A DNA stretch of 64,000 nt from an uncultured Alphaproteobacteria bacterium (GCA_944391715.1 CALXUP010000001.1:100676-164675), one strand, 5' to 3'; numbered from the stretch's first letter, positions 1-53,296 are shown. Notes: generated from the sequence alone by a model not told the origin. A program made the numbers and translations.

Positions 1-1958
1 CTTAGAGCTTTGGGACCGAAATTGGCAGACAGTTCGTTGTATTTGAAGTCTAACGAATCTTTATCGAGTTTGAAACGGTAGTTTAAATCAAGGTACTGAC
101 TGGGAGAGGCGTTAATACGTCCGACATAATCGCTGAAACGGCCGCTTTGGTCATCGCTGGTGCTGAAACTGCTGGTCTTGTCGAAATTGTAGCTTTGGGC
201 AATGAAGGCTGAAGTCCGGCCGGTGCGGTTGCCGTAAGCACTCCAGTTTAATCCGTAGCTGATGCGGCTGCCGGTATCATTGCGATCATAACCGGCATAG
301 CGGTCGATATCCAAAATGTTGGTGTCGTCAAGTTCAACGTCCTGGCTGTCGTCATTGGGTATTTTGTCCAGTTTGTTTCCGCCGTTTGGGGCGGCAACGG
401 CGACAATCGTCGGCTCGATAATCTGGCGTGATGTTTCAGTGGCACGGATGAACGGCAATTTCCATTCTAAGCCCAATTGTGGGAAAACGCGAGCAACTCC
501 GCCGTCAAAGGTTTCTCCTTTGTAGTTTTTATAGTCATCTATGTTATATAAGTCGGATTTTACGGAAGCCATTAAGCGGTATTTTTCACCATATTCGCTG
601 GTATAAGGCAATACCCAGGAATTTATCATGGAAATACGCTGGCTGGAATTTTCATCGTCCCGGCTGATGACTGCACCATTGAACGTATTTTTGTTGTAAG
701 CGCCGTAAGGTCCGATTTCTCCGATATTTTCGTAATTGAACCACGGCATAATCAACGGTTTGTCGATTTCTTTTAAATCGTAGCTTAGAAGTTTATAGGT
801 GTAAGCTTCAATGGCAGCATAGTTTCGAAAATCAAAACCTTCGAGTTTGGCACTTGATGTCAGCCAGGCATCGTCTTTTTTGGGCAAAGACATATCTTTC
901 AGATATGCTCTGTCAGATGCATAGTTGATGTCAAGATTGCCGACCCAGTAATCGTTAAGTTCATAACGTCCGGTCATAAATAAACTGCCGCGCTGGCGGT
1001 CATCATCGTCATCTTTCAGGTAGGTTCCGGTCGCTTCAACTTCTCCGTTGGTAAAATACTGGCTATAGGTACCACTTTGAACAATTCCGTGGTCGCTGCT
1101 TAAAATCGGCGAGTAGAGAAAATTCTGGTTGGGGGAAATATCCCAAAAGTATTTTGGCTGAATAGCGGCTCCGAGATAAGAGTTGCTACGGAAACTTGGC
1201 ATTAAAAATCCACTGCGGCTTTTTACCGTCGGATCAGGATGCGAGAAAAACGGTGTGTAAAATATTGGAACACCTTTGAGCTCTATGGTTGCATTTTGGT
1301 AGTTAACATTTTTGGCTTCGGCATCATGTTGGACTTTGGTGGCTTTTATCTGCCAGAGGGGATCTTTGCCGGCACAGACGTCGCAAGGCGTGTAAACGGC
1401 GTTTGTCATCAGCTTGTTGTCTTTGGCAAGCCGGCGGAATTTGGTTGCGGCAATGCGGGCCTTGTTTTGCATAATAACTTTGATGTTATCCATTGACCCC
1501 TGGGTCATTTGATCCGTTAATTCAACATAATCGGAGAAAACAACGTTTCCGTCTTTTTCAACCAAAATGACGTTGCCGGTAGCAGTTACAATATCTTCTT
1601 TTTGATTGTAAATGACTTTATCGGCAATAAGGGTCAGATTGTTTCTGATGATGTTGACATTGCCTGTAGCAGTTACAACTTGCATTTCCTGGTTATTTTC
1701 AACTTCATCAGCGCTGAAATATATTTCGGTTTCTTCTTCTTTGTTTTTTTCTTCCGGTGTACTCAGTACCGACGTTATATTCATTTGAGGAGCTATGCTG
1801 GCCTGATAAGTCGGTTTTTCCGGCTTTTGCAAAACAGTTCCCGCTTCTTTTTTCAGCGGGTCTTTTTTATTTATCGAATCTTCCTCGGCAGAGGCATTGT
1901 TGCTTATGCAGGATAGTAAGGCCAGAGTGCATATCCAGAGAAGGCTTTTTTTAGGCAT
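1..1958 (-). CDS. lptD: LPS-assembly outer-membrane protein LptD (OstA), C-terminally truncated by the window edge. The ATG is at 1956-1958 on the minus strand, and the N-terminus MPKKSLLWICTLALLSCISNNASA is a signal peptide.
   Basis: Hand translation of the minus strand gives an uninterrupted ~650-aa Y/N/D/G-rich beta-barrel-like protein. It lies immediately downstream of an LptF/G-family permease (2-bp gap), the usual lptG-lptD arrangement. It is absent from the ORF track only because it runs off the window. Confidence 0.8.
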   Translation of the reverse strand, partial: MPKKSLLWICTLALLSCISNNASAEEDSINKKDPLKKEAGTVLQKPEKPTYQASIAPQMNITSVLSTPEEKNKEEETEIYFSADEVENNQEMQVVTATGNVNIIRNNLTLIADKVIYNQKEDIVTATGNVILVEKDGNVVFSDYVELTDQMTQGSMDNIKVIMQNKARIAATKFRRLAKDNKLMTNAVYTPCDVCAGKDPLWQIKATKVQHDAEAKNVNYQNATIELKGVPIFYTPFFSHPDPTVKSRSGFLMPSFRSNSYLGAAIQPKYFWDISPNQNFLYSPILSSDHGIVQSGTYSQYFTNGEVEATGTYLKDDDDDRQRGSLFMTGRYELNDYWVGNLDINYASDRAYLKDMSLPKKDDAWLTSSAKLEGFDFRNYAAIEAYTYKLLSYDLKEIDKPLIMPWFNYENIGEIGPYGAYNKNTFNGAVISRDDENSSQRISMINSWVLPYTSEYGEKYRLMASVKSDLYNIDDYKNYKGETFDGGVARVFPQLGLEWKLPFIRATETSRQIIEPTIVAVAAPNGGNKLDKIPNDDSQDVELDDTNILDIDRYAGYDRNDTGSRISYGLNWSAYGNRTGRTSAFIAQSYNFDKTSSFSTSDDQSGRFSDYVGRINASPSQYLDLNYRFKLDKDSLDFKYNELSANFGPKAL

Positions 1959-8360: not shown

Positions 8361-9467
8361 ATGAACCCGCAGTCTATTCTTGGAAGATATCTGACCAAAC
8401 AGATTATTTACAATTTTCTTGCCGTTTTGCTGATGGTAATCGGAATTGTTATGCTGTTTGAAGTCGTTGAACTGTTGCGCCGGGCTTCCGGCCGGGACGA
8501 TGCGTCTTTCGGCCTGATTATGGAGATGGCTTTTACCAAACTGCCGAAAACCGTGGAAATGGTTTTTCCGTTTGTGATGATGATTGCGGCCATGATTACG
8601 TTTTGGAAACTCAGCAAAAGTAATGAATTTGTGATTATCCGGAGTGCGGGCGTGTCTATCTGGGGTTTTCTGGCGCCGGTTCTTTTGGCAACGTTTTTGG
8701 TCGGGGTGGTCAATGTTACGGTGGTTAATCCGATTTCTGCCCGGATGAATGAATTGTACGAGACGCTGAATTATCGTTTTAAAACACGTAATCCGAAAGC
8801 TGTTCTTTTTTCTGAAAAAGGGTTGTGGCTGCGGGAGGCAATCAGCGCCGATAAGTTTCTTTATCTGCAGGCAAAATCCGTCCGGCAGGAACAAGATACA
8901 TTATTTTTGCGCGGCGTAACGATTTTGGAGATGAGCAGGGAATCGCAGAATTTGCGCCGGATTGAGGCTTATGCCGCCAATTTGAAGGATGATGTGTTTG
9001 AACTGATTAACGTTAAAATTTATGAGCCCGGAAAGCCAACCGTGTCGCAAGACAGGCTTATGTATAAAACAACCTTGACAATAGAAAGGATAAAAGAAAA
9101 TTTTGTTGAGCCGGAATCTATCTCTTTTTGGGATTTGCCGGATACAATCCATTTTTATGAGATGTCGGGCTTTTCGGCGCAAAAACACCGACTGCGTTAT
9201 TTGTCCCTGCTGGCCTCGCCTTTTCTGCTTTGTTCCATGGTTTTGGTGGCGGCGGTTTTTGCCTTGCGGCCGAATAACCGGCGCGGCGGTGTGATGTATC
9301 TGATTGTCGGCGGGCTTTCTACCGGTTTTATCGTCTATTTTATGTCGCAAGTAATTTATGCTTTCGGAATCAATAATATTATCCCCGGTTTTTTGGCGGT
9401 TTGGACGCCGGCGCTGATTGTGATGATGATTAGCGTGTCGGTTCTCCTCCATCTCGAGGACGGGTAA
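8361..9467 (+). CDS. LptF/LptG-family LPS export permease, the second paralog
   Basis: 368 aa with the same YjgP/YjgQ architecture as 1951..3096 (N-terminal TM bundle, periplasmic domain, C-terminal TMs). Its stop codon is abutted by a MITE-like repeat. Confidence 0.85.
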   Translation: MNPQSILGRYLTKQIIYNFLAVLLMVIGIVMLFEVVELLRRASGRDDASFGLIMEMAFTKLPKTVEMVFPFVMMIAAMITFWKLSKSNEFVIIRSAGVSIWGFLAPVLLATFLVGVVNVTVVNPISARMNELYETLNYRFKTRNPKAVLFSEKGLWLREAISADKFLYLQAKSVRQEQDTLFLRGVTILEMSRESQNLRRIEAYAANLKDDVFELINVKIYEPGKPTVSQDRLMYKTTLTIERIKENFVEPESISFWDLPDTIHFYEMSGFSAQKHRLRYLSLLASPFLLCSMVLVAAVFALRPNNRRGGVMYLIVGGLSTGFIVYFMSQVIYAFGINNIIPGFLAVWTPALIVMMISVSVLLHLEDG

Positions 9468-9698
9468 AAACTGCGCAATACGGACGCCTAATACAGAAAA
9501 GGAAAATCCGGCTAAGTTACGTACGTCTATGTACGCGCCTGTCGCCGGATTTTCCTTTTCTTATTATCCGTCTTAGGTATCTAGGCGCGCTGCGGTTGCT
9601 AACGCTTTCCTAGCTTGCCAAGATGTTCCAAAGAGCTTGCAGACAAAAACAACCGGAGCAGCGGTTGTTTTTACTTAGCGCTTCTATCGCAGTTTTTA
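9465..9698. mobile_element. Complete MITE-like palindromic element, long form (R1+R2 modules, ~234 bp), bounded by the TIRs TAAAAACTGCG / CGCAGTTTTTA. Its first TAA is the lptF-like stop codon.
   Basis: Near-identical to the copy at 17832..18064. The 11-bp terminal inverted repeats are read directly. Internal hairpins sit at 9497-9558 and 9646-9673. Confidence 0.8.
9646..9673. terminator. Bidirectional rho-independent terminator-like hairpin carried inside the repeat (aaaaacaaccg-gagcag-cggttgttttt)
   Basis: 11-bp perfect stem and 6-nt loop, with A-run and T-run flanks giving U-tracts on both strands. The same hairpin recurs at ~9849-9876 and ~18017-18044. Confidence 0.6.
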
Positions 9699-10040
9699 CA
9701 GCGGCTTGAAGAGACGTTTGTTATGGAAAGTTTAAAGCTAACCTGTCGCTAAAATTCTTTTTTCTTATTATCTGACTTAGGCATCTAGGCGCGCTGCGGT
9801 TGCTAACGCTTTCCTTGCTTGCCAAGATGTTACAAAGAGCTTGCAGACAAAAACAACCGGAGCAGCGGTTGTTTTTGCTTAGCGCTTCTATCGCGTTTTT
9901 TACAGCGGCTTGAAAGGAGATTTAGTATGGAAATTTTTTAGGTGGCTAAGTTACGTACGTCTATACGCGCCTGTCGCCTTAAAGTTTTTTTCTTATTACC
10001 AGTCTCATTTTCTTTGTTTTTTACAGTGGCTTGAAGGAAG
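9699..10040. repeat. Degenerate tandem partial copies of the same element (R1 3' half, a second R2 module, then fragments of R1/R2), filling the convergent intergenic space.
   Basis: Recognisable blocks ttaggcatctaggcgcgctgcggttgctaacgc... and ggctaagttacgtacgtctatacgcgcctgtcgcc are shared with the other loci. Confidence 0.75.
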
Positions 10041-15356: not shown

Positions 15357-17834
15357 ATGACTGACAGATATAATGGAAAAGGCTCATTTGAGGAATGGGC
15401 AAAAGAATGGGAAACGGAAGACCGCTATAATTTTAAAAAAATTGAAAAAAAGTGGCAGAGCATCTGGGATGAAAACAAGGCTTATAAGGTAGAAATCGAC
15501 AAGAATAAGGAAAAATATTATGTTCTGGTCGAATTTCCTTATCCGTCCGGCGCCGGTCTGCATGTGGGACATCCTCGCTCTTATACGGCATTGGATGTGG
15601 TAGCGCGCAAAAAGAGAATGCAGGGTTTTAACGTTTTGTATCCGATGGGCTTTGATGCTTTCGGTCTGCCGGCGGAGAATTATGCGATTAAAACCGGCGT
15701 TCATCCGGCAGTTTCCACTAAAGCCAATATTGAAAACTTTACCCGCCAGCTGAAGTCAATCGGATTCAGCTTTGACTGGGACAGAGCTTTTAATACCTGT
15801 GATCCGGAATATTATAAGTGGACGCAGTGGATGTTTATCAAACTTTTTGAAAAAGGTTTGGCATATAAAGACAAAATGGCAATCAACTGGTGCCCGTCCT
15901 GCAAAGTCGGTCTGGCTAATGAAGAGGTTGTCAACGGCTGCTGCGAACGTTGCGGTGCGCAGGTTGTTCGTAAGGACAAAGAGCAGTGGATGGTGGCAAT
16001 TACCAAATATGCCGACCGTTTGATTAACGATTTGGATGATTTGGATTTTATTGACCGGGTTAAAGCACAGCAGATTAACTGGATCGGGCGTTCGGAAGGT
16101 GCCGAGCTGGATTTTGATTTGGTTGACGTTCACGGTAATTCTTTGGACGGAAGAAAGCTTAAAGTCTTTACAACGCGTCCGGATACGGCCTTTGGCGTGA
16201 CTTATATGGTTATGGCGCCGGAGCATGCCTTTGTATCCGAGCTGATGCCGCAATTTGAAAATCCGGAAGAAATCAGAGCTTATGTGGCGGAAACGGCCAA
16301 AAAGTCTGATTTGCAGAGAACGATGGATGACAGCAAAACAGGTGTTGAACTGAAAGGGATTAAAGCAAAGAATCCGTTTAACGGAACGTTGATTCCGGTA
16401 TTTATTTCCGATTATGTGCTGACCGGTTACGGTACCGGCGCAATTATGGCGGTGCCGGCTCATGACCAACGCGACTATGATTTTGCCAAGGCTTTTAATC
16501 TGCCGATTATTCAGGTTCTGGCCGGCGGCGATATTGCCGAAAAGGCTTGGGAAGAAGACGGTGCACATATTAATTCCGGCTTTATGGACGGCATGAATAA
16601 AGATGAGGCGATGAAGGCTGCAATTGCTTTTGCCGAAAAGAACGGTTTTGGCAAATCGAAGGTTAATTTCAAACTGCGTGACTGGGTATTTTCACGTCAG
16701 CGTTATTGGGGCGAGCCTATTCCGATGGTCTATTGCGAGCATTGCGGCTGGCAGCCGGTTCCGGAAGACCAGCTCCCTCTGACTTTGCCGGAAGTTCCAG
16801 ATTATCTGCCGAATGATAACGGCGACTCTCCTTTGGCAAAGGCCACCGACTGGGTTAATACAACTTGTCCGAAATGCGGAGCTCCGGCACGCAGAGAGAC
16901 CGATGTTATGCCAAACTGGGCGGGTTCGTCATGGTATTTTCTGCGTTATTGTGATCCGCACAATGACAAAGAGTTTGCCTCTAAAGAAGCGTTGGATTAC
17001 TGGATGAATGTCGATTGGTATAACGGTGGTATGGAGCATACGACTTTACACCTGCTTTATTCGCGTTTTTGGCATAAGTTTTTGTATGACTGCGGTTATG
17101 TGCCGACCAAAGAACCCTATCAGCGCCGGACGTCGCATGGTATGATTTTGGCTGAGAACGGCGAGAAAATGTCAAAATCGCGCGGTAATGTGATTAATCC
17201 CGATGATATTGTTAATAATTACGGGGCAGACAGCTTCCGTCTGTATGAGATGTTTATCGGGCCGTTTGACCAGGTGGCAATGTGGTCCGATGACAGTCTG
17301 AACGGTGTATACCGTTTTGTCGGCAAGGTGTATAACCTGTTTAAGAAGGTTAATAAAAGTGCCAAGCCCTCGGCTAAAGATATTCAGATGATGCACAAGA
17401 CCATTCTTGAAGTTACCGAAAGAATTGATCAGATGAAGTTTAACACGGCGGTTTCTTCTTTGATGACCTATGTAAACCATTTGTCTTCTTTGGATGAGAT
17501 TGCTCCGGAGCTTTATGAAAATCTGCTGCTTTTGATGTGTCCGTTTACGCCGCATCTGGCAGAGGAAATGTGGGCAAGAATGGGGCATACGTCATTGATT
17601 ATTACGGAGCCCTGGCCGAAAGGCGATGCCAAACTGGCTGAGGAAAATACCGTTACTTATGCCGTTCAGATTTGCGGCAAAATGCGCGGTACAATCGATT
17701 TGCCGAAAGACGCACCGCGCGAAGAGGTTGAAAAAGCCGCATTATCGCTTGAAAATGTTAAGCGGCAGTTGGAAGGCAAAGAGGTTAAAAAGGTTATTGT
17801 GGTGCCTAATAAAATCATCAACCTTGTTGCGTAA
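15357..17834 (+). CDS. leuS: Leucyl-tRNA synthetase
   Basis: HIGH motif (HVGHPRSYT), KMSKS motif (KMSKSRGN), class I editing-domain context and leuS-lptE-holA synteny. Confidence 0.95.
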   Translation: MTDRYNGKGSFEEWAKEWETEDRYNFKKIEKKWQSIWDENKAYKVEIDKNKEKYYVLVEFPYPSGAGLHVGHPRSYTALDVVARKKRMQGFNVLYPMGFDAFGLPAENYAIKTGVHPAVSTKANIENFTRQLKSIGFSFDWDRAFNTCDPEYYKWTQWMFIKLFEKGLAYKDKMAINWCPSCKVGLANEEVVNGCCERCGAQVVRKDKEQWMVAITKYADRLINDLDDLDFIDRVKAQQINWIGRSEGAELDFDLVDVHGNSLDGRKLKVFTTRPDTAFGVTYMVMAPEHAFVSELMPQFENPEEIRAYVAETAKKSDLQRTMDDSKTGVELKGIKAKNPFNGTLIPVFISDYVLTGYGTGAIMAVPAHDQRDYDFAKAFNLPIIQVLAGGDIAEKAWEEDGAHINSGFMDGMNKDEAMKAAIAFAEKNGFGKSKVNFKLRDWVFSRQRYWGEPIPMVYCEHCGWQPVPEDQLPLTLPEVPDYLPNDNGDSPLAKATDWVNTTCPKCGAPARRETDVMPNWAGSSWYFLRYCDPHNDKEFASKEALDYWMNVDWYNGGMEHTTLHLLYSRFWHKFLYDCGYVPTKEPYQRRTSHGMILAENGEKMSKSRGNVINPDDIVNNYGADSFRLYEMFIGPFDQVAMWSDDSLNGVYRFVGKVYNLFKKVNKSAKPSAKDIQMMHKTILEVTERIDQMKFNTAVSSLMTYVNHLSSLDEIAPELYENLLLLMCPFTPHLAEEMWARMGHTSLIITEPWPKGDAKLAEENTVTYAVQICGKMRGTIDLPKDAPREEVEKAALSLENVKRQLEGKEVKKVIVVPNKIINLVA

Positions 17835-18064
17835 AAACTGCGCAATACGGACGCCTAATACAGAAAAGGAAAATCCGGCTAAGTTACGTACGTCTATGTA
17901 CGCGCCTGTCGCCGGATTTTCCTTTTCTTATTATCCGTCTTAGGTATCTAGGCGCGCTGCGGTTGCTAACGCTTTCCTAGCTTGCCAAGATGTTCCAAAG
18001 AGCTTGCAGACAAAAACAACCGGAGTAGCGGTTGTTTTTGCTTAGCGCTTCTATCGCAGTTTTT
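17832..18064. mobile_element. Complete MITE-like palindromic element, long form. Its first TAA is the leuS stop codon. The right TIR variant is CGCAGTTTTTG.
   Basis: About 98% identical over ~230 bp to 9465..9698. The same TIR and internal hairpins are read directly. Confidence 0.8.
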
Positions 18065-18195
18065 GCAGCGGCCTGAAGGGGCTTTGTTATTGCAGATGTT
18101 TTTCTTATTTGTGGGCTTTTCCGTAAAAAATTATGGACTTGTGGCGGAAATGCGGTTAAATTTGCTGTAAGTTAATTTTTTATAAAAGGACGAAT

Positions 18196-22291: not shown

Positions 22292-22990
22292 ATGTACAGC
22301 GAAAAATTTGCCAAAGCGGTTGAGATGCTGCAAAAAGATTTTGCTTTGGAAAGATCTATTGATGAAAAAATTTGTGCCGATCGGGACGGAAGGCCAATTC
22401 CCTGGTATACATTTCCGGCGATTGAGTATTTATCGCAATTTGATTATCGAAACAGAAAAATTTTTGAATACGGCTGCGGTTCTTCTTCGCATTTTTGGGC
22501 GGAGAGAGCCGAAAAGGTCATTAGTATTGAAGATAATCCGAAGTGGTTTGAGAAATGGCAGGCAGAAATGACGGAATCTAATCTGGAGGTTCGCTGGCGG
22601 GATGAAGGCGAGATTTATGAAAATGCCATTTTTGAACAGGAAGATTTGTTTGATGTTATTGTGGTTGACGGTAAAAGACGGGCGGAATGTTGTGCGGCGG
22701 CGGTGCAAAGACTGACTAAGGGCGGAATGATTATTCTTGATGACAGCGACAGGGTTAATACCAGCCAGGAATATCGAAAAGCGATTGCCATTCTTCGGGA
22801 AAGCGGATTGATTCAGGTGGATTTTTATGGTTTTTGCCCAATGAATTGTTATACCAAAACAACCAGTCTGTTTTTGAGCCGGGATTTTGATTTTGAATCA
22901 AAATATGAGGTTCAGCCGATAAACGGATTGGGAAATTTATGGTCGATGAGCCGACGAGAAAGAAAGGATTTTTATAAGAAAATGGCATAA
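22292..22990 (+). CDS. Putative class I SAM-dependent methyltransferase
   Basis: Motif I-like IFEYGCGSSSHFWA and an acidic motif II/post-I (VISIEDN), followed by VIVVDG...GGMIILDD, typical of the Rossmann MTase fold. A terminator follows. Confidence 0.55.
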   Translation: MYSEKFAKAVEMLQKDFALERSIDEKICADRDGRPIPWYTFPAIEYLSQFDYRNRKIFEYGCGSSSHFWAERAEKVISIEDNPKWFEKWQAEMTESNLEVRWRDEGEIYENAIFEQEDLFDVIVVDGKRRAECCAAAVQRLTKGGMIILDDSDRVNTSQEYRKAIAILRESGLIQVDFYGFCPMNCYTKTTSLFLSRDFDFESKYEVQPINGLGNLWSMSRRERKDFYKKMA

Positions 22991-22992
22991 AA

Positions 22993-23031
22993 AACAGGAT
23001 TGCGGTTTTTTACCGGAATCCTGTTTTTTTT
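22993..23031 (+). terminator. Rho-independent terminator after the methyltransferase gene
   Basis: Hairpin caggattgcgg/ccggaatcctg followed by TTTTTTTT. Confidence 0.6.
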
Positions 23032-23316
23032 GTATCAGTCATCATATCTGTTAACATTGCGGTATTTGTATATATCATACCACATTATCAGATATACAAA
23101 CACTGTAAATACGACCCAAATTAATCCTGTAATTTGCCAGCCGTTTAATGAAGCTAAAAAGTCGACCATAGTATTTTTTTATTTAATGGTTAATGAATTC
23201 AAAAAATTTATAAAAAAATGTATGCGAATTTTTGTTTCATAAAAGCAATATAATTAAAGTTAATAATAAATTTTGTGCTTTCCAATATATGCCAGAACGT
23301 CTTTGTAGTCAACAGA

Positions 23317-27670: not shown

Positions 27671-27686
27671 ATACTTTTCAAAAAGA

Positions 27687-27733
27687 ATCAGTCTCTTGGG
27701 ATTTTTTTATCCGGTGGGAGACTGATTTTTTTA
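27687..27733. terminator. Bidirectional terminator-like hairpin between pip and the BI-1 gene
   Basis: 9-bp stem atcagtctc/gagactgat with a long loop, followed by TTTTTTT. Convergent gene ends flank it. Confidence 0.4.
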
Positions 27734-27758
27734 TCTTCATTAAAATGCTTGATGCAAA

Positions 27759-32727: not shown

Positions 32728-32804
32728 GTACCCGTAGCTCAGTTGGATAGAGTATCGGCCTCCGACGCCGAGAGTCGTGGGTTCGAATCCCTCCGGGTAC
32801 GCCA
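32728..32804 (+). tRNA. tRNA-Arg, anticodon CCG
   Basis: Cloverleaf read by hand: a 7-bp acceptor stem GTACCCG/CGGGTAC, the D-arm GCTCAGTTGGATAGAGT and the anticodon loop CU-CCG-AC with U33 and A37. The T-loop is TTCGAAT, with discriminator G and an encoded CCA. It closely parallels E. coli tRNA-Arg(CCG). One U-U mismatch sits in the T-stem. Confidence 0.85.
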
Positions 32805-34277: not shown

Positions 34278-34321
34278 ATAAAAAAAAGCCGGGAGTTTTT
34301 TACTTTCCGGCCTTTTTATTT

Positions 34322-36285: not shown

Positions 36286-36300
36286 ATATATTATTTTCTT

Positions 36301-36330
36301 AAAAAGCTCCCTTTTGCAAGGGAGCTTTTA
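36301..36330. terminator. Bidirectional rho-independent terminator between convergent genes
   Basis: agctccc-ttttgcaa-gggagct hairpin flanked by an A-run and a T-run. Confidence 0.7.
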
Positions 36331-36332
36331 TG

Positions 36333-40301: not shown

Positions 40302-40343
40302 TCCGAATGAACTGCCGCTTTTTTTCGGCGGGAGAGACCGTGT

Positions 40344-44956: not shown

Positions 44957-47368
44957 ATGTTTGGTTTGAAAAATTTTAAGACTTTCGCCGGTGCCCTGAT
45001 GCTGGCGCTGGTCGGGGTGGTTCAAGGGGCGTATGCTTCAGAAATCGACCTCAAAATTCCGTCTTTGGACGTGGAATACAATATCTTCGGTTATTCCGTC
45101 CTGGGATCGCAGATTTTGTTTTATGGTATGAGCATCTGTGTTCTCGGTATGCTTTTTGGTTTGTATGAATTTCTTAAAATCAAAAAAATGCCGGCTCACG
45201 AAGCCATGCTGAAAGTATCGGAACTGATTTATGCGACCTGCAAAACCTATATGAAACAACAAGCTAAACTGCTTTTGCTTCTGGAATTGTTTATTGCGGT
45301 TTGTATTTTCTACTATTTCTATTATCTCAACGCAACGCCGATGCCGAAAGTGCTGACAATTCTTTCCTGGTCGGTTCTCGGTATTCTCGGGTCTTATTCG
45401 GTGGCCTGGTTCGGTATGCGCATTAACAATTATGCCAATGCCCGCACAGCCTTTTCTTCTTTGGAAGCCAAGGCTTATAAGGTTATGAGCCTGCCGCTGC
45501 GTTCCGGCATGTCTATCGGTGTTTTGCTGATTTGCGTTGAGCTGATTATGATGATTGCCATTCTTTTGTTTGTGCCGAAAGAAAGCGCAGGCGCCTGCTT
45601 TATCGGATTTGCCATCGGTGAATCTTTAGGTGCGGCGGCTTTGCGTATTTGCGGCGGTATCTTTACCAAGATTGCCGATATCGGTGCGGATTTGATGAAG
45701 ATTATTTTCAAAATCGGTGAAGATGATGCCCGCAATCCGGGTGTGATTGCCGACTGTACCGGTGATAATGCCGGCGACTCCGTCGGTCCGACCGCCGATG
45801 GTTTTGAGACTTACGGCGTTACCGGTGTGGCTCTTATCAGCTTTATCGTTCTGGGTGCCGGTATGATGTATGCCCCGAACGGTGATTTGACCCTGATGCC
45901 GAACGGTGTTGATTTTCAGGCTCGTCTGATTGTCTGGATTTTTGCAATGAGACTCCTGATGATTATTACTTCGCTGGTTTCTTACTGGCTTAATAACAAA
46001 GTTTCTTCCGCCCTTTACGGCAAAAAGGAATTTTTTGATTTTGAAAAACCGTTGACCAGCCTGATTTGGTTTACTTCCATTATCTCGATTGCCGTTACTT
46101 TCGGCGTTTCTTATGTGATGATCGGTGATCTCAGCCCGGATTTGTGGTGGAGACTTTCTCTGATTATCAGCTGTGGTACTTTGGCTGCGGCTTTGATTCC
46201 GGAATTTACCAAAATCTTTACTTCGTCAAAATCCCAACATGTTCAGGAAATTGTCAAATCCAGTCGTGAGGCCGGTGCTTCTCTGAACATTATTTCCGGT
46301 ATCGTTGCCGGTAATTTCTCGGCTTTTTGGCAGGGTATAGTTATGGTCGGCCTGATGGTGGTTGCGTTCTTTACCGCCCAATCCGGTTTGGACAGCTTTA
46401 TGGTTTATCCGACAGTCTTTGCTTTCGGTCTGGTAGCTTTCGGTATGCTCGGCATGGGGCCGGTTACGATTGCCGTAGACAGCTATGGCCCGGTAACCGA
46501 TAATGCCCAGTCTGTTTTTGAGCTTTCTCAGATTGAAGGTATTAAGAACGTTGACAAAGATATTGAGAAAAAATACGGCTTTAAACCGAATTTTGAGCAG
46601 GGCAAACATTTGCTCGAGGCCAATGACGGCGCCGGAAATACCTTTAAAGCAACGGCTAAGCCGGTGCTTATCGGTACGGCCGTTATCGGTGCTACAACGA
46701 TGATTTTCTCAATTATCCTGTTGCTTAACCTGAAACTGAATCTGCTGGATCCGCAAGTCCTGTTCGGCCTTATTCTCGGCGGTGCGGTGATTTACTGGTT
46801 CTCCGGCGCTTCAATGCAGGCGGTTTCGACCGGGGCTTATCGTGCAGTTGATTTTATTAAAAAACATATCAAACTGAGCGGTAAGAAAGCGGCTTCGCAG
46901 AAAGACTCTCAGGAAGTGGTCAAGATTTGCACAATTTATGCGCAAAAGGGTATGTTTAATATCTTTATCGTAATCTTTTCCTTTACGATTGCTTTTGCCT
47001 GCTTTGATGCAAATCTGTTTGCAAGCTATCTGATTTCAATTGCCGTATTTGGTTTGTTCCAAGCGCTGTTTATGGCAAATGCCGGCGGTGCATGGGATAA
47101 CGCCAAGAAAGTGGTTGAAGTTGATTTGAACGAGAAAGGTACGCCGCTGCATGACGCTACCGTTGTCGGCGATACGGTCGGTGATCCGTTCAAAGATACG
47201 TCTTCCGTTGCTCTCAACCCGATTATCAAATTTACAACCTTGTTTGGTTTGTTGGCGGTTGAGATGGCCGTAGCGGCTCCGAGATGTGTATCTCTGGGGC
47301 TGGGTATTTTCTTCTTATTGTTGGGGTTGGTATTTGTATATCGGTCTTTCTACAAGATGAAAATATAA
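44957..47368 (+). CDS. hppA: Membrane-bound proton-translocating pyrophosphatase (H+-PPase)
   Basis: About 800 aa and 15+ TM. The conserved GDNAGD and DxxGDxxGD motif region (CTGDNAGDSVGPTADGFETY) is present, and an AAGGAAAA RBS precedes the ATG at 44957. Confidence 0.9.
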   Translation: MFGLKNFKTFAGALMLALVGVVQGAYASEIDLKIPSLDVEYNIFGYSVLGSQILFYGMSICVLGMLFGLYEFLKIKKMPAHEAMLKVSELIYATCKTYMKQQAKLLLLLELFIAVCIFYYFYYLNATPMPKVLTILSWSVLGILGSYSVAWFGMRINNYANARTAFSSLEAKAYKVMSLPLRSGMSIGVLLICVELIMMIAILLFVPKESAGACFIGFAIGESLGAAALRICGGIFTKIADIGADLMKIIFKIGEDDARNPGVIADCTGDNAGDSVGPTADGFETYGVTGVALISFIVLGAGMMYAPNGDLTLMPNGVDFQARLIVWIFAMRLLMIITSLVSYWLNNKVSSALYGKKEFFDFEKPLTSLIWFTSIISIAVTFGVSYVMIGDLSPDLWWRLSLIISCGTLAAALIPEFTKIFTSSKSQHVQEIVKSSREAGASLNIISGIVAGNFSAFWQGIVMVGLMVVAFFTAQSGLDSFMVYPTVFAFGLVAFGMLGMGPVTIAVDSYGPVTDNAQSVFELSQIEGIKNVDKDIEKKYGFKPNFEQGKHLLEANDGAGNTFKATAKPVLIGTAVIGATTMIFSIILLLNLKLNLLDPQVLFGLILGGAVIYWFSGASMQAVSTGAYRAVDFIKKHIKLSGKKAASQKDSQEVVKICTIYAQKGMFNIFIVIFSFTIAFACFDANLFASYLISIAVFGLFQALFMANAGGAWDNAKKVVEVDLNEKGTPLHDATVVGDTVGDPFKDTSSVALNPIIKFTTLFGLLAVEMAVAAPRCVSLGLGIFFLLLGLVFVYRSFYKMKI

Positions 47369-47492
47369 AAACTGCGCAATACGGACGCCTAATACAGAAA
47401 AGGGAAATCCGGCTAAGTTACGTACGTTTATGTACGCGCCTGTTGCCGGATTTTCCTTTTCTTATTATCCGTCGCGTCTATCGCAGTTTTTA
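47366..47492. mobile_element. Complete MITE-like element, short form (R1 module joined directly to the right TIR, 127 bp). Its first TAA is the hppA stop codon.
   Basis: TIRs TAAAAACTGCG / CGCAGTTTTTA. The body is ~95% identical to the R1 module at 9465 and 17832. Confidence 0.8.
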
Positions 47493-47760
47493 CAGGGGTT
47501 TGAAAGGGCGTTTAGTATAGAAAGTTCTTAAGGCTAATCATGTACCACTACGTACACTCCTGTCGCTTTAAAGGTTTTTTCTTATTACTAGCCTCATTCT
47601 CCGTGATTTTTGGTAAAAACAGCGCTCTGTGGTCACCTAATACAGAAAAAAGAATTTTAGCTAAGTCATGTATGCTTTTATACACTCCTGTCGCTAAAAT
47701 TCTTTTTTCGTATTATCCGTCTTAGGTATTTAGGCGCGCTGCAATATGTTCCGAAGATAC
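47493..47760. repeat. Degenerate and partial copies of the same family, including a second left arm TAAAAACAGCGCTCTGTGGTCACCTAATACAG at 47614 and a truncated R2 5' end
   Basis: Shared blocks cctaatacagaaaa, cctgtcgc...cttattatccgtcttaggtat. Confidence 0.7.
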
Positions 47761-52168: not shown

Positions 52169-52906
52169 ATGTTTAGATTAGATGGAAAAATTGCCCTGAT
52201 TACCGGTGCTGCCGGCGGTTTGGGGGATAAAATCGCCCGGACGCTGCATGCTCAGGGGGCAACATTGGCTTTGACCGATATGCGCGAAGAGCCGATGCTT
52301 AAACTGAAAGAAGAGCTCGGTTCCAATGTTGAGGTCTTTACGGCCAACCTGACGAATCCGGATGATGTTAAGTCTTTGGTAGAAAAAGTTGAGGCAAAAC
52401 TCGGCCGGATTGATATTTTGGTTAACAACGCCGGTTTGACCCGCGATAACCTTTTTATCAGAATGAGCGACGAAGACTGGCAGCTGGTTTTGGATGTTAA
52501 CCTTTCCGCCGGTTTCAAATTGGCAAAAGCTGCCGTTCGCGGTATGATGAAACGCCGTTACGGTCGTATTATCGGCATTGCCTCGGTTGTCGGCGTTACC
52601 GGAAATGCCGGTCAGGCCAACTATTCTGCCTCCAAGGCCGGTATGATTGCCATGAACAAATGTCTGGCTCAGGAAGTCGGCTCACGCGGCATTACCGTAA
52701 ACTCGATTGCGCCGGGCTTTATCCGCACGCCGATGACTGATGTTTTGCCGGAAGATGTTAAAAAAGCTCTGTTGGCGAAAATTCCGGAAGGCAAACTCGG
52801 TGAAGCTCAGGATATTGCCAATGTTGTAGCATTTTTGGCTTCCGATGAGGCGCAGTATATTACGGGACAGACTATTAATATCAATGGCGGAATGGCCATG
52901 ATTTAA
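52169..52906 (+). CDS. fabG: 3-oxoacyl-ACP reductase
   Basis: TGAAGGLG cofactor motif, the NNAG motif and the YSASKAG catalytic tetrad context. Confidence 0.95.
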   Translation: MFRLDGKIALITGAAGGLGDKIARTLHAQGATLALTDMREEPMLKLKEELGSNVEVFTANLTNPDDVKSLVEKVEAKLGRIDILVNNAGLTRDNLFIRMSDEDWQLVLDVNLSAGFKLAKAAVRGMMKRRYGRIIGIASVVGVTGNAGQANYSASKAGMIAMNKCLAQEVGSRGITVNSIAPGFIRTPMTDVLPEDVKKALLAKIPEGKLGEAQDIANVVAFLASDEAQYITGQTININGGMAMI

Positions 52907-52917
52907 AACTTGCAAAA

Positions 52918-52996
52918 GGCCGGTCATGCTTGTTTCTTTTCTCCTCGTGTACCTTTTTTGTACACGTCGTCGAAAAAAAACGGCGCAGCACCGGCC
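52918..52996. repeat. R3 palindromic module copy a (~79 bp; outer stem GGCCGGT/ACCGGCC, inner stem CGTGTAC/GTACACG)
   Basis: Directly repeated ~85% at 53149..53228; nested inverted repeats read directly. Confidence 0.7.
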
Positions 52997-53010
52997 TTTA
53001 TCAAGTTTTT

Positions 53011-53136
53011 TAAAACCGCGCTCTGTGGTCACCTAATACAGAAAAAGGAAATCCGGCTAAGTTATGTACGTTTATGTACGCGCCTGTCGCCGGATTTCCT
53101 TTTTCTTATTATCCGTCGCGTCTATCGCGGTTTTTA
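53011..53136. mobile_element. Complete MITE-like element, short form, with covarying TIR variant TAAAACCGCG / CGCGGTTTTTA
   Basis: Body ~90% identical to 47366..47492. Both TIR arms carry a compensatory T->C and A->G change relative to the other copies. Confidence 0.8.
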
Positions 53137-53148
53137 CAGCGGCTAAAA

Positions 53149-53228
53149 GGGCTGGTCATACTTGTTCCTTTTCTCCTCGTGTATCTGTTTGGTACACGTT
53201 GTTGGAAAGTAACTGCGTAGCACCAGCC
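53149..53228. repeat. R3 palindromic module copy b, followed by a degenerate left-arm fragment (aaaactgtgttttgtggttacctagtatat)
   Basis: Sequence similarity to 52918..52996. Confidence 0.7.
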
Positions 53229-53261
53229 TTTTATAAAACTGTGTTTTGTGGTTACCTAGTA

Positions 53262-53296
53262 TATAAAAAACTCCGGAAGTGTTTTCCGGAGTTTTA
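53262..53296 (-). terminator. Rho-independent terminator downstream of grpE
   Basis: actccgga/tccggagt hairpin with a U-tract on the minus-strand transcript. Confidence 0.6.

Follow-up and report, generated by a model that had tools for sequence, protein, structure and literature searches.

Complementary ends are maintained in a mosaic intergenic hairpin repeat of uncultured gut Alphaproteobacteria

REP sequences are imperfect palindromes of 20–40 nt that have a conserved GTAG on the 5′ side of the hairpin foot, REPINs are two REPs in inverted orientation, and RAYTs are Y1 HUH transposases encoded by single-copy genes. REPIN hairpins are reported to show frequent compensatory changes between their two sides (PMC3116915), and base-pair compensatory changes are described for bcr1 (PMC3184786). 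REP/BIME sequences form tandem mosaic arrays in which the number of units per locus varies between strains (PMC3333891). CIR is an alphaproteobacterial intergenic repeat of about 110 nt from Caulobacter (listed in PMC3184786), and SPRITE is a described terminator-like repeat (PMC3184786, PMC10969869). Of the known systems, REPIN/BIME sequences and hairpin MITEs such as ERIC, bcr1 and CIR come closest to the repeat described here (PMC3184786, PMC3333891, PMC10969869). The repeat is best classed as an undescribed family within a familiar general kind, the structured intergenic palindromic repeats, in a clade of uncultured gut Alphaproteobacteria.

The stretch of DNA that we analyzed, hereafter the window, is 64 kb long, has 44.7% G+C and carries ordinary housekeeping genes; those beside repeat units encode LptG, LeuRS, LptE, H+-PPase, FabD/FabG and GrpE. 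The unit at 53011–53136 (+ strand, 126 nt) folds at −50.7 kcal/mol (z −6.6) and is 77% identical to its own reverse complement. Its left terminus, TAAAACCGCG (53011–53020, + strand; columns 3–12 of alignment A1, described below), is the 5′ strand of a basal helix. The right terminus, CGCGGTTTTT (53126–53135, + strand; A1 columns 119–128), is the 3′ strand and is followed by an A at 53136 and then the linker ACAGCGGCTAAAAG. The core, defined by an nhmmer core model, runs from CCTAATACAG to TTCTTATTA (53032–53111, + strand) and forms a helix of about 27 bp round a conserved 31-nt apical region; a covarying variable stem is part of this helix. Within that region lies the mini-hairpin GTAC-N6-GTAC (53066–53081, + strand), a motif common to the D6 and C-type modules described below. 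The unit is a chimera, with a B-type left end and arm joined to an A-type core and right arm.

Three other copies in the window have the ends AAAAACTGCG/CGCAGTTTTT. A short A-type unit at 47366–47492 (+ strand), which differs from the 53011 unit at about 11% of positions, gives the H+-pyrophosphatase gene its TAA stop codon through its left end. Two long A-type units lie at 9465–9698 (+ strand; insert module at 9573–9682), where the left end is the lptG stop codon, and between leuS and lptE at 17832–18065 (+ strand; insert at 17940–18049), where it is the leuS stop codon; they are about 98% identical over 248 nt. The AAAAACTGCG left ends occupy 9466–9475, 17833–17842 and 47367–47376, and the CGCAGTTTTT right ends 9688–9697, 18055–18064 and 47482–47491. 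An initial annotation of the window had noted that, relative to these three copies, a T>C change in the left end of the 53011 unit is matched by an A>G change in its right end, and the sequences do read that way. The termini it gave for the copies at 9465 and 17832 are also as given, but these two are 233-nt long forms with an insert of about 110 nt between inner hairpin and right end. Their right ends lie about 220 nt downstream, compared to about 115 nt in the short form.

The same annotation took a further left arm at 47614 (AAAAACAGCG, 47615–47624) as showing that the termini drift. The B-type unit to which it belongs is cut off within its insert module at the end of the array and has no right end, and such an orphan arm provides no test of drift. 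Overlooked was a fifth complete unit at 52903–53009 (+ strand), of a second module type with its D6a hairpin at 52914–52999, whose ends TTAAAACTTG/CAAGTTTT are complementary too; the fabG stop codon (52904–52906) lies inside its left terminus.

Units occur in arrays together with C-type units, D6 hairpins (52914–52999 and 53146–53231) and the insert module, and a conserved linker, ACAGCGGCYTGAARG, connects the modules. In the fabG array, the 53011 unit is followed by D6b (53146–53231, + strand), a second copy of the D6 hairpin module that is 83% identical to D6a, and by the leftover of a B-type left end, TAAAACTGTGTTTTGTGGTTACCTAGTATA (53233–53263, + strand), which is kept in the related locus L042 as well. 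A native bidirectional intrinsic-terminator-like hairpin, AAAAAACTCCGG...CCGGAGTTTT (53265–53295), adjoins the grpE stop codon. The remainder of the pyrophosphatase array (47493–47745, + strand) consists of linker, a C′-type unit and the B-type unit from 47614. The lptG array continues over 9699–10036 (+ strand) with two more partly deleted units, one of which has the right end CGCGTTTTTT at 9892–9901.

D6 is a second hairpin repeat family (copies 83% identical, z about −6.5) with its own conserved tail, TTATCAARYTTTTTAAT; it has only the apical GTAC-N-GTAC motif in common with the main units and has copies in many related loci (e.g., L009, L026 and L053). The insert module (TTAGGYATCTAGGCGCGCTGCGG...GCTTAGCGCT, about 110 nt) occupies a constant position within the right arm (9573–9682, 9777–9886 and 17940–18049, with a truncated copy from 47722) and holds a canonical terminator-like hairpin, AAAAACAACCGGAGCAGCGGTTGTTTTT. 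It varies at orthologous sites: behind leuS, the window has the long form and L017 and L027 the short form.

On either strand, the units fold into one long irregular hairpin (−50 to −64 kcal/mol, z −6.6 to −9.6), and the long form keeps this fold with its insert as side branches (z-scores about −6 to −9 across folded units). The basal helix of 10–12 bp is composed of T, an A-run and a GC-rich pentamer on the left and of a pentamer, a T-run and A on the right. Inward of it follow an asymmetric internal loop, a short arm helix, a conserved TAATACAGAAAA/TTTTCTTATTA helix, a variable stem of about 10 bp, and the 31-nt apical region with its mini-hairpin, such that about 105 nt of structured sequence separate the 5′ and 3′ strands of the basal helix. 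The termini, rather than standing apart as a feature of their own, form the base of a single hairpin of about 125 nt.

Taken alone, the window offers one compensated pair at about 11% divergence between copies, which would be suggestive but weak evidence for constrained pairing. Related loci were collected with an internal pattern that does not include the termini. This search returned 41 loci from a species-representative genome collection, three of them chance matches, and 13 from a metagenome collection; the viral contigs scanned gave one match, which was spurious. Seven loci (L013, L031 and L041 from the genome scan; L043, L045, L050 and L054 from the metagenome scan) were set aside as unrelated or incomplete and hold zero complete units. 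The host loci belong nearly all to MAGs of uncultured gut Alphaproteobacteria, whose gut sources include human, mouse and ruminant. From the window and 52 related loci, the core model recovered 59 full cores, and 46 complete units were used. Ends were taken as 10-mers at fixed offsets from the core, with the insert of long forms cut out first, and units were kept when the A-run and T-run stood at these offsets, ignoring the variable bases. The 13 excluded units are array-internal or truncated, with no recognizable end.

The 46 units carry 25 distinct end haplotypes, 12 of which are perfectly complementary at 10/10 positions. Mean end complementarity is 9.24/10, compared to 7.36 (sd 0.21) when right ends are shuffled among units, and none of 100,000 shuffles is as high. 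An alignment of all genomic copies had been proposed in the initial annotation as the way to check for covariation; with 46 complete units, terminal complementarity turns out to be far above chance.

We aligned 42 distinct units with MAFFT on sequence only, in a fixed register with gap-free end columns (alignment A1). In the terminal helix (11 pairs), 92.9% of cells are paired compared to 77.2% after shuffling, and nine pairs have changed on both sides. Its covariation score of 0.394 is reached by none of 500 shuffles (shuffled score 0.130), and slid controls score at most 0.067. Across the whole hairpin (45 pairs), 97% of cells are paired, 24 pairs have changed on both sides, and the score is 0.391 (shuffled 0.124, 0/500; slid controls at most 0.117). 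Helix 2, the core, is 98% paired with both sides changed in 13/27 pairs, and the apical mini-hairpin also covaries, from GTAC/GTAC to GTAT/ATAC in other units (pairs 58–73 and 62–69). We note that cells are not independent: the 80 cells counted correspond to about 10 independent compensatory pair replacements, because much of the variation spreads by recombination or homogenization among units and not by point compensation at each site.

These results support the proposal that the termini pair and that selection or a transposition requirement holds the pairing: 9/11 terminal pairs have changed on both sides without loss of pairing, and covariation extends to the remainder of the hairpin. These data show that complementarity of the basal helix and of all other helices is maintained across many different sequences. 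There is good support both for pairing of the ends within a folded single strand and for constraint on that pairing.

The units carry at least nine different types of complementary ends, some of them in distant species: CTGCG/CGCAG, CCGCG/CGCGG, ACGCG/CGCGT, ATGCG/CGCAT, GTGCG/CGCAC, GTTCG/CGAAC, CTTCA/TGAAG, CTTG/CAAG and ACGTG/CACGT. Changes inside the runs are matched as well (TGAAAAT/ATTTTCA, TAAGACAG/CTGTCTTA). The majority of ends are variants of one consensus, A4–6 [CAG][TC]GCG.

Could such complementarity arise with no constraint on pairing? It might be produced mechanically, by template switching in quasi-palindromes, arm-to-arm repair or fold-back copying, or be left by recent descent from a few perfect masters. 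We consider this quite improbable. Copies within a genome are near-identical, end types tend to be genome-specific at three orthologous sites (CTGCG in the window, ACGCG in the MAG CAJUCZ), and mismatched units such as that in L029 are visibly recombinant, all as this explanation would have it. However, the asymmetric internal loops and the asymmetric 31-nt apical region are conserved in all lineages; arm-to-arm correction would erase them, and their persistence makes mechanical correction unlikely. Common descent accounts for the joint inheritance of two ends but not for the self-complementarity of each of at least nine end types, distant species included. The single clearly old copy observed, at the lptG site of L060, is decaying, which fits a loss of constraint after inactivation.

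The paired cells comprise 1815 Watson-Crick pairs, 19 G·T and 23 C·A, with no G·U enrichment; the terminal helix by itself has 14 C·A and 3 G·T (about 7 vs 2 independent cases). We tried the balance of G·U and C·A mismatches as a strand test and discarded it, since 19 vs 23 is uninformative and the terminal-helix skew comprises too few cases to rest on. Young copies, or a role for both transcripts as in bidirectional terminators, would leave no G·U excess either. As a separate observation, all seven independent single internal mismatches of the terminal helix (A1 columns 8–11/120–123, e.g., L030, L037, L018, L024 and L006) have C on the left and A on the right of the + strand. Read on the opposite strand, these are G·T wobbles; the inner helices have no such bias (16 G·T vs 9 C·A).

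Two regularities of the family are notable, its replication polarity and its anchoring to stop codons. With regard to anchoring, the first unit of an array lies 0–10 nt after a co-oriented gene at 18/18 independent sites, and in 13 cases the left end supplies the stop codon with its T-A-A. The right end of units reads CGCRG followed by T4–6. Native terminators in the window likewise consist of an A-run, a GC stem and a T-run, some starting at the stop codon (e.g., TAAAAAACAGGATT...AATCCTGTTTTTTTT after 22990). Related loci without an array behind leuS have a native terminator there: GGCCCCGCAG-TTATC-CTGCGGGGCTTTT in L060 and A7-CACGCTGAAT...ATTCAGCGTG-T7 in L062. As predicted from sequence, the units present the GC-rich stem followed by a U-run at the 3′ end of a gene that defines intrinsic terminators. 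A compact terminator hairpin (stem about 5–14 bp, loop 3–8 nt) was rejected as a description, given the roughly 105 nt between the strands of the basal helix, and a simple consensus terminator scan does not call the units, as their loop exceeds 8 nt. Native bidirectional terminator-like hairpins also stand between convergent genes of the window at 22988–23036, 27671–27758, 34278–34321, 36286–36332, 40302–40343 and 53265–53295.

This likeness raises the question of whether the termini are simply each gene's native terminator stem, site-specific and naturally self-complementary, with an inner module inserted in the terminator loop. This account would explain the fabG site, where the ends AAAACTTG/CAAGTTTT flank a D6 module in the window and one of core type in L042, and native terminators open with TAAAAAAC-like runs at stop codons. 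Nevertheless, the same ends recur at three unrelated window sites, behind lptG, leuS and the pyrophosphatase gene, and orthologous sites of other genomes have different ends; on these grounds we rejected the account, which is very improbable. Further against it, most ends fit one consensus, identity between dispersed copies starts at GTAAAAAC, and the vacant leuS sites (L056–58, L060) show no simple hairpin made of the two termini.

As for polarity, the + strand of the unit lies on the G-rich strand at 20/20 independent sites, and the unit itself is C-rich on that strand (skew −0.16). The + strand of the window has a GC skew of +0.13 overall and of +0.09 to +0.20 per 8-kb bin, with 27 genes on + and 32 on −, and the whole window appears to belong to a single replichore, its + strand being the leading one. 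About 56% of genes point the same way as the units. Of the 20 sites, ten lie between convergent genes; the gene on the G-rich strand anchors the array at all ten, and the lagging-strand gene at none. "Leading strand" is assigned here from GC skew alone, by the usual rule that the G-rich strand is leading, and we infer that this is the strand exposed as the lagging-strand template. IS200/IS605 elements have the same kind of orientation bias (PMC5027513).

This strict polarity points to a strand-specific single-stranded form, either ssDNA at the replication fork, a sense transcript, or both. The initial annotation had offered a DNA cruciform or an RNA stem; its paired ends stand, but a symmetric double-stranded cruciform is the least likely form in view of the strict polarity at 20/20 sites. 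Alternatively, polarity could result from selection against inversions between recombining copies.

We hypothesize, with about even confidence, that the family is a REPIN/BIME- or MITE-like mosaic intergenic hairpin element whose active form is a folded single strand, probably ssDNA at the replication fork. Pairing would be kept because units are copied or inserted as the folded strand, most likely as ssDNA exposed on the template of the lagging strand, in the manner of IS200/IS605 elements and REP/RAYT systems. A unit would then propagate or act as a conversion donor only while its ends can pair. Once inserted, a unit would be transcribed from the upstream gene, and its base of A-run, GC stem and U-run, shaped like that of native bidirectional terminators, probably ends or stabilizes the upstream mRNA, such that arrays could replace native terminators. 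We think that both hold: propagation needs a folded strand with paired ends, and the inserted unit serves, or is tolerated, as a terminator. Watson-Crick pairing, polarity by GC skew at convergent sites, fast turnover and the insertion of units into one another favor a DNA stage. An RNA role is favored by the location of units at stop codons, by a hairpin base that resembles a terminator and by the exchange with native terminators among relatives; the unpaired conserved loops and the fixed stop-codon position would fit such a role equally well.

A possible, if on the whole doubtful, alternative dispenses with the DNA stage. The units would then be terminator or 3′-UTR stabilizer modules, with the basal helix kept by selection on the upstream transcript and spread by recombination or gene conversion only. 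Consistent with this, first units abut a co-oriented upstream gene at 18/18 sites and overlap its stop codon at 13, the hairpin base (A-run, GC-rich stem, T-run) has the design of the window's native terminators, arrays and native terminators are mutually exclusive at the leuS site among relatives, and SPRITE provides a precedent (PMC3184786, PMC10969869). However, there is no excess of G·U over C·A (19 vs 23 cells overall, 3 vs 14 in the terminal helix), and the A-run/T-run pairs covary too, although a terminator needs no pairing there. Transcription alone does not predict leading-strand anchoring at 10/10 convergent sites. The interior of about 105 nt, moreover, is far beyond a normal terminator loop and leaves the unit uncalled by a simple scan, and one array lies within the leuS–lptE junction, which is uninterrupted in relatives.

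We compared genomes at orthologous sites whose flanks are 85–98% identical and found that the number and type of units differ. The site behind leuS carries one long A-type unit in the window, one short unit in L017, two units in L034, three or four in L027 and in L012, and a C-type unit in L059. Behind the pyrophosphatase gene, L037 (flanks 98% identical) has a B-type first unit with the stop context TAGGGTAAAAC; in the window, an A-type unit is joined directly to the stop codon. End type follows the genome more than the site: CTGCG/CGCAG stands behind lptG, leuS and the pyrophosphatase gene in the window, and ACGCG/CGCGT behind the same three genes in CAJUCZ. At the fabG site, the same ends enclose different modules, as noted above for the window and L042.

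Units with mismatched ends are visible recombinants. In L029, one has the left end of one unit and the right end of the next, and in L016 and L036 the left end of the first unit is the same as that of the resident unit behind it. Together with the chimeric 53011 unit, these recombinants indicate that units are exchanged and homogenized as blocks, with matched ends marking intact units. These comparisons show that units are gained, lost, swapped and homogenized quickly. We also looked for single insertion events between the window and L042, L029 and L037 (flanks 95–98% identical) and found no clean filled/empty pair for a single unit, the differences being multi-step replacements in which no target-site duplication could be read; the T...A that flanks units is compatible with a TA duplication, yet also belongs to the helix.

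In distant relatives (LeuRS 82–83% identical), the leuS–lptE spacer is 11–66 nt, with no units within 22 kb, and the vacant leuS sites of L056–58 and L060 are too diverged to define a junction. L060 keeps one decayed unit behind lptG, from which we conclude that the family is old at that site. In L022 (4447–5930), the fabG–grpE spacer measures about 1.45 kb compared to 0.41 kb in the window, with an additional C-type unit exactly at the fabG stop codon, before the resident unit, and more than 1 kb of extra sequence downstream. In L015 (about 960–1065, minus strand), and similarly in L046, an insertion of about 75 nt is nested in the apical loop (GCTAAGT/GTCCTCGACAAGC...CGACTC/CATGTAC, with slashes at the junctions).

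Going beyond the mosaic-element reading, the family may be a new type of non-autonomous element, moved or copied as a folded single strand at the fork, with its substrate defined by end-to-end pairing and not by end sequence. Integration would target either the T/TAA and A-run junction where a leading-strand gene has its stop codon or the left end of a unit already in place, and arrays would grow from the stop codon into the terminator slot. We advance this bolder version tentatively and rate it as rather unlikely.

In comparison with known systems, the family resembles REPIN/BIME sequences in being extragenic and high-copy, in its long hairpin of about 100 nt, in its compensatory changes and in its strain-variable tandem clusters, and an ssDNA mechanism linked to the lagging-strand template has been proposed for REPINs. 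Unlike them, it has no conserved GTAG at the hairpin foot (A1), its arms belong to one continuous hairpin of about 125 nt in place of short REP palindromes, it is stop-codon-anchored with fixed strand polarity, it has no sequence similarity to described REPs, and no RAYT gene was seen in the loci searched. Having neither GTAG nor a REP doublet, the units are not REPs at the sequence level.

With the hairpin MITEs (ERIC, Correia, bcr1, RPE, Nezha and CIR; 100–250 nt), the family shares terminal inverted repeats, the lack of an ORF, an intergenic or 3′-UTR location, longer variants with internal inserts and nested insertions. At 126 or 233 nt, with no conserved ORF and a terminal inverted repeat of 10–12 bp, the units have the small size, inverted ends and lack of coding capacity of a MITE. 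The family differs in that no target-site duplication could be read, no parent IS with the same ends was found among 30 window ORFs scanned, and the ends vary in sequence yet stay complementary, which recognition by a sequence-reading transposase does not predict.

SPRITE and native Rho-independent terminators share with the units the A-run, GC-rich stem and T-run directly after a stop codon, and at leuS the units take the native terminator's slot; the units differ in having about 105 nt of structured, conserved sequence in place of a 3–8-nt loop and a polarity set by replication and not by transcription. IS200/IS605 elements and PATEs are likewise strand-specific and hairpin-dependent, and the orientation bias of the former fits an active strand that is the lagging-strand template (PMC5027513); the units show such a bias at 20/20 sites, with the strand taken from GC skew. 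Insertion beside a short specific sequence with no duplication, as in IS200/IS605, would fit the T/TAA junction of the units. However, those elements have a subterminal hairpin at each end and pairing between guide and cleavage site, whereas unit ends pair with each other, and we rejected this end architecture accordingly. No TnpA or TnpB was seen here by tblastn with approximate probes, a weak search.

The attC sites of integrons (e.g., VCRs of about 125 nt) are also imperfect palindromes of similar length directly after stop codons, are recombined as folded single strands and conserve complementarity rather than sequence. Their R″/R′ boxes read RYYYAAC/GTTRRRY, in contrast to RRRRAAC/GTTYYYY (TAAAAAC/GTTTTTA) or non-AAC ends such as AAAAGTGCG in the units. 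On the basis of this box consensus and of neighbors that are dispersed housekeeping genes and not cassettes, we rejected an attC identity; no integrase is present in the 30 window ORFs scanned.

These 30 ORFs include no mobile-element gene, IS or integrase, and about 0.6 Mb from many genomes yielded no transposase, RAYT or other enzyme. The best tblastn match of approximate RAYT-like and IS200-like probes in about 470 kb of partial genomes had E = 0.16. Rfam at gathering score matched only a tRNA in the whole window (32728–32801); at E ≤ 10, two arrays gave only chance miRNA-like hairpin matches far under threshold. A literature search returned nothing relevant on the repeat sequence itself.

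The family provides a clean, well-populated natural case of kept base-pairing in a bacterial repeat, from an uncultured, abundant gut lineage, and leaves the general picture of REP-, REPIN- and MITE-like repeats unchanged. Covariation, GC-skew polarity and stop-codon anchoring together constrain the mechanism, and the choice between ssDNA and RNA could be put to the test with existing metagenomes and metatranscriptomes. Such arrays break assemblies and mark strain-level variation at fixed loci, and essential genes, leuS, lptG and fabG among them, may have their 3′ ends set by the arrays.

Two features of the leuS–lptE region deserve mention. In L062–L064 (12540–13346, minus strand), relatives with 37% G+C and no repeat arrays, an ORF of 268 aa with no Pfam match lies between leuS and lptE. 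In addition, about 100 nt upstream of lptE (window 18065–18195; ..TTATGGACTTG..GGAAATGCGGTTAAATTTGCTGTAAG..TTTTTTATAAAAGGA) are conserved in all array-bearing genomes (L017, L027, L034, L012 and L059) as well as in L060. This stretch may be a promoter or leader for lptE and would in that case allow expression of the gene despite a terminator-like array behind leuS.
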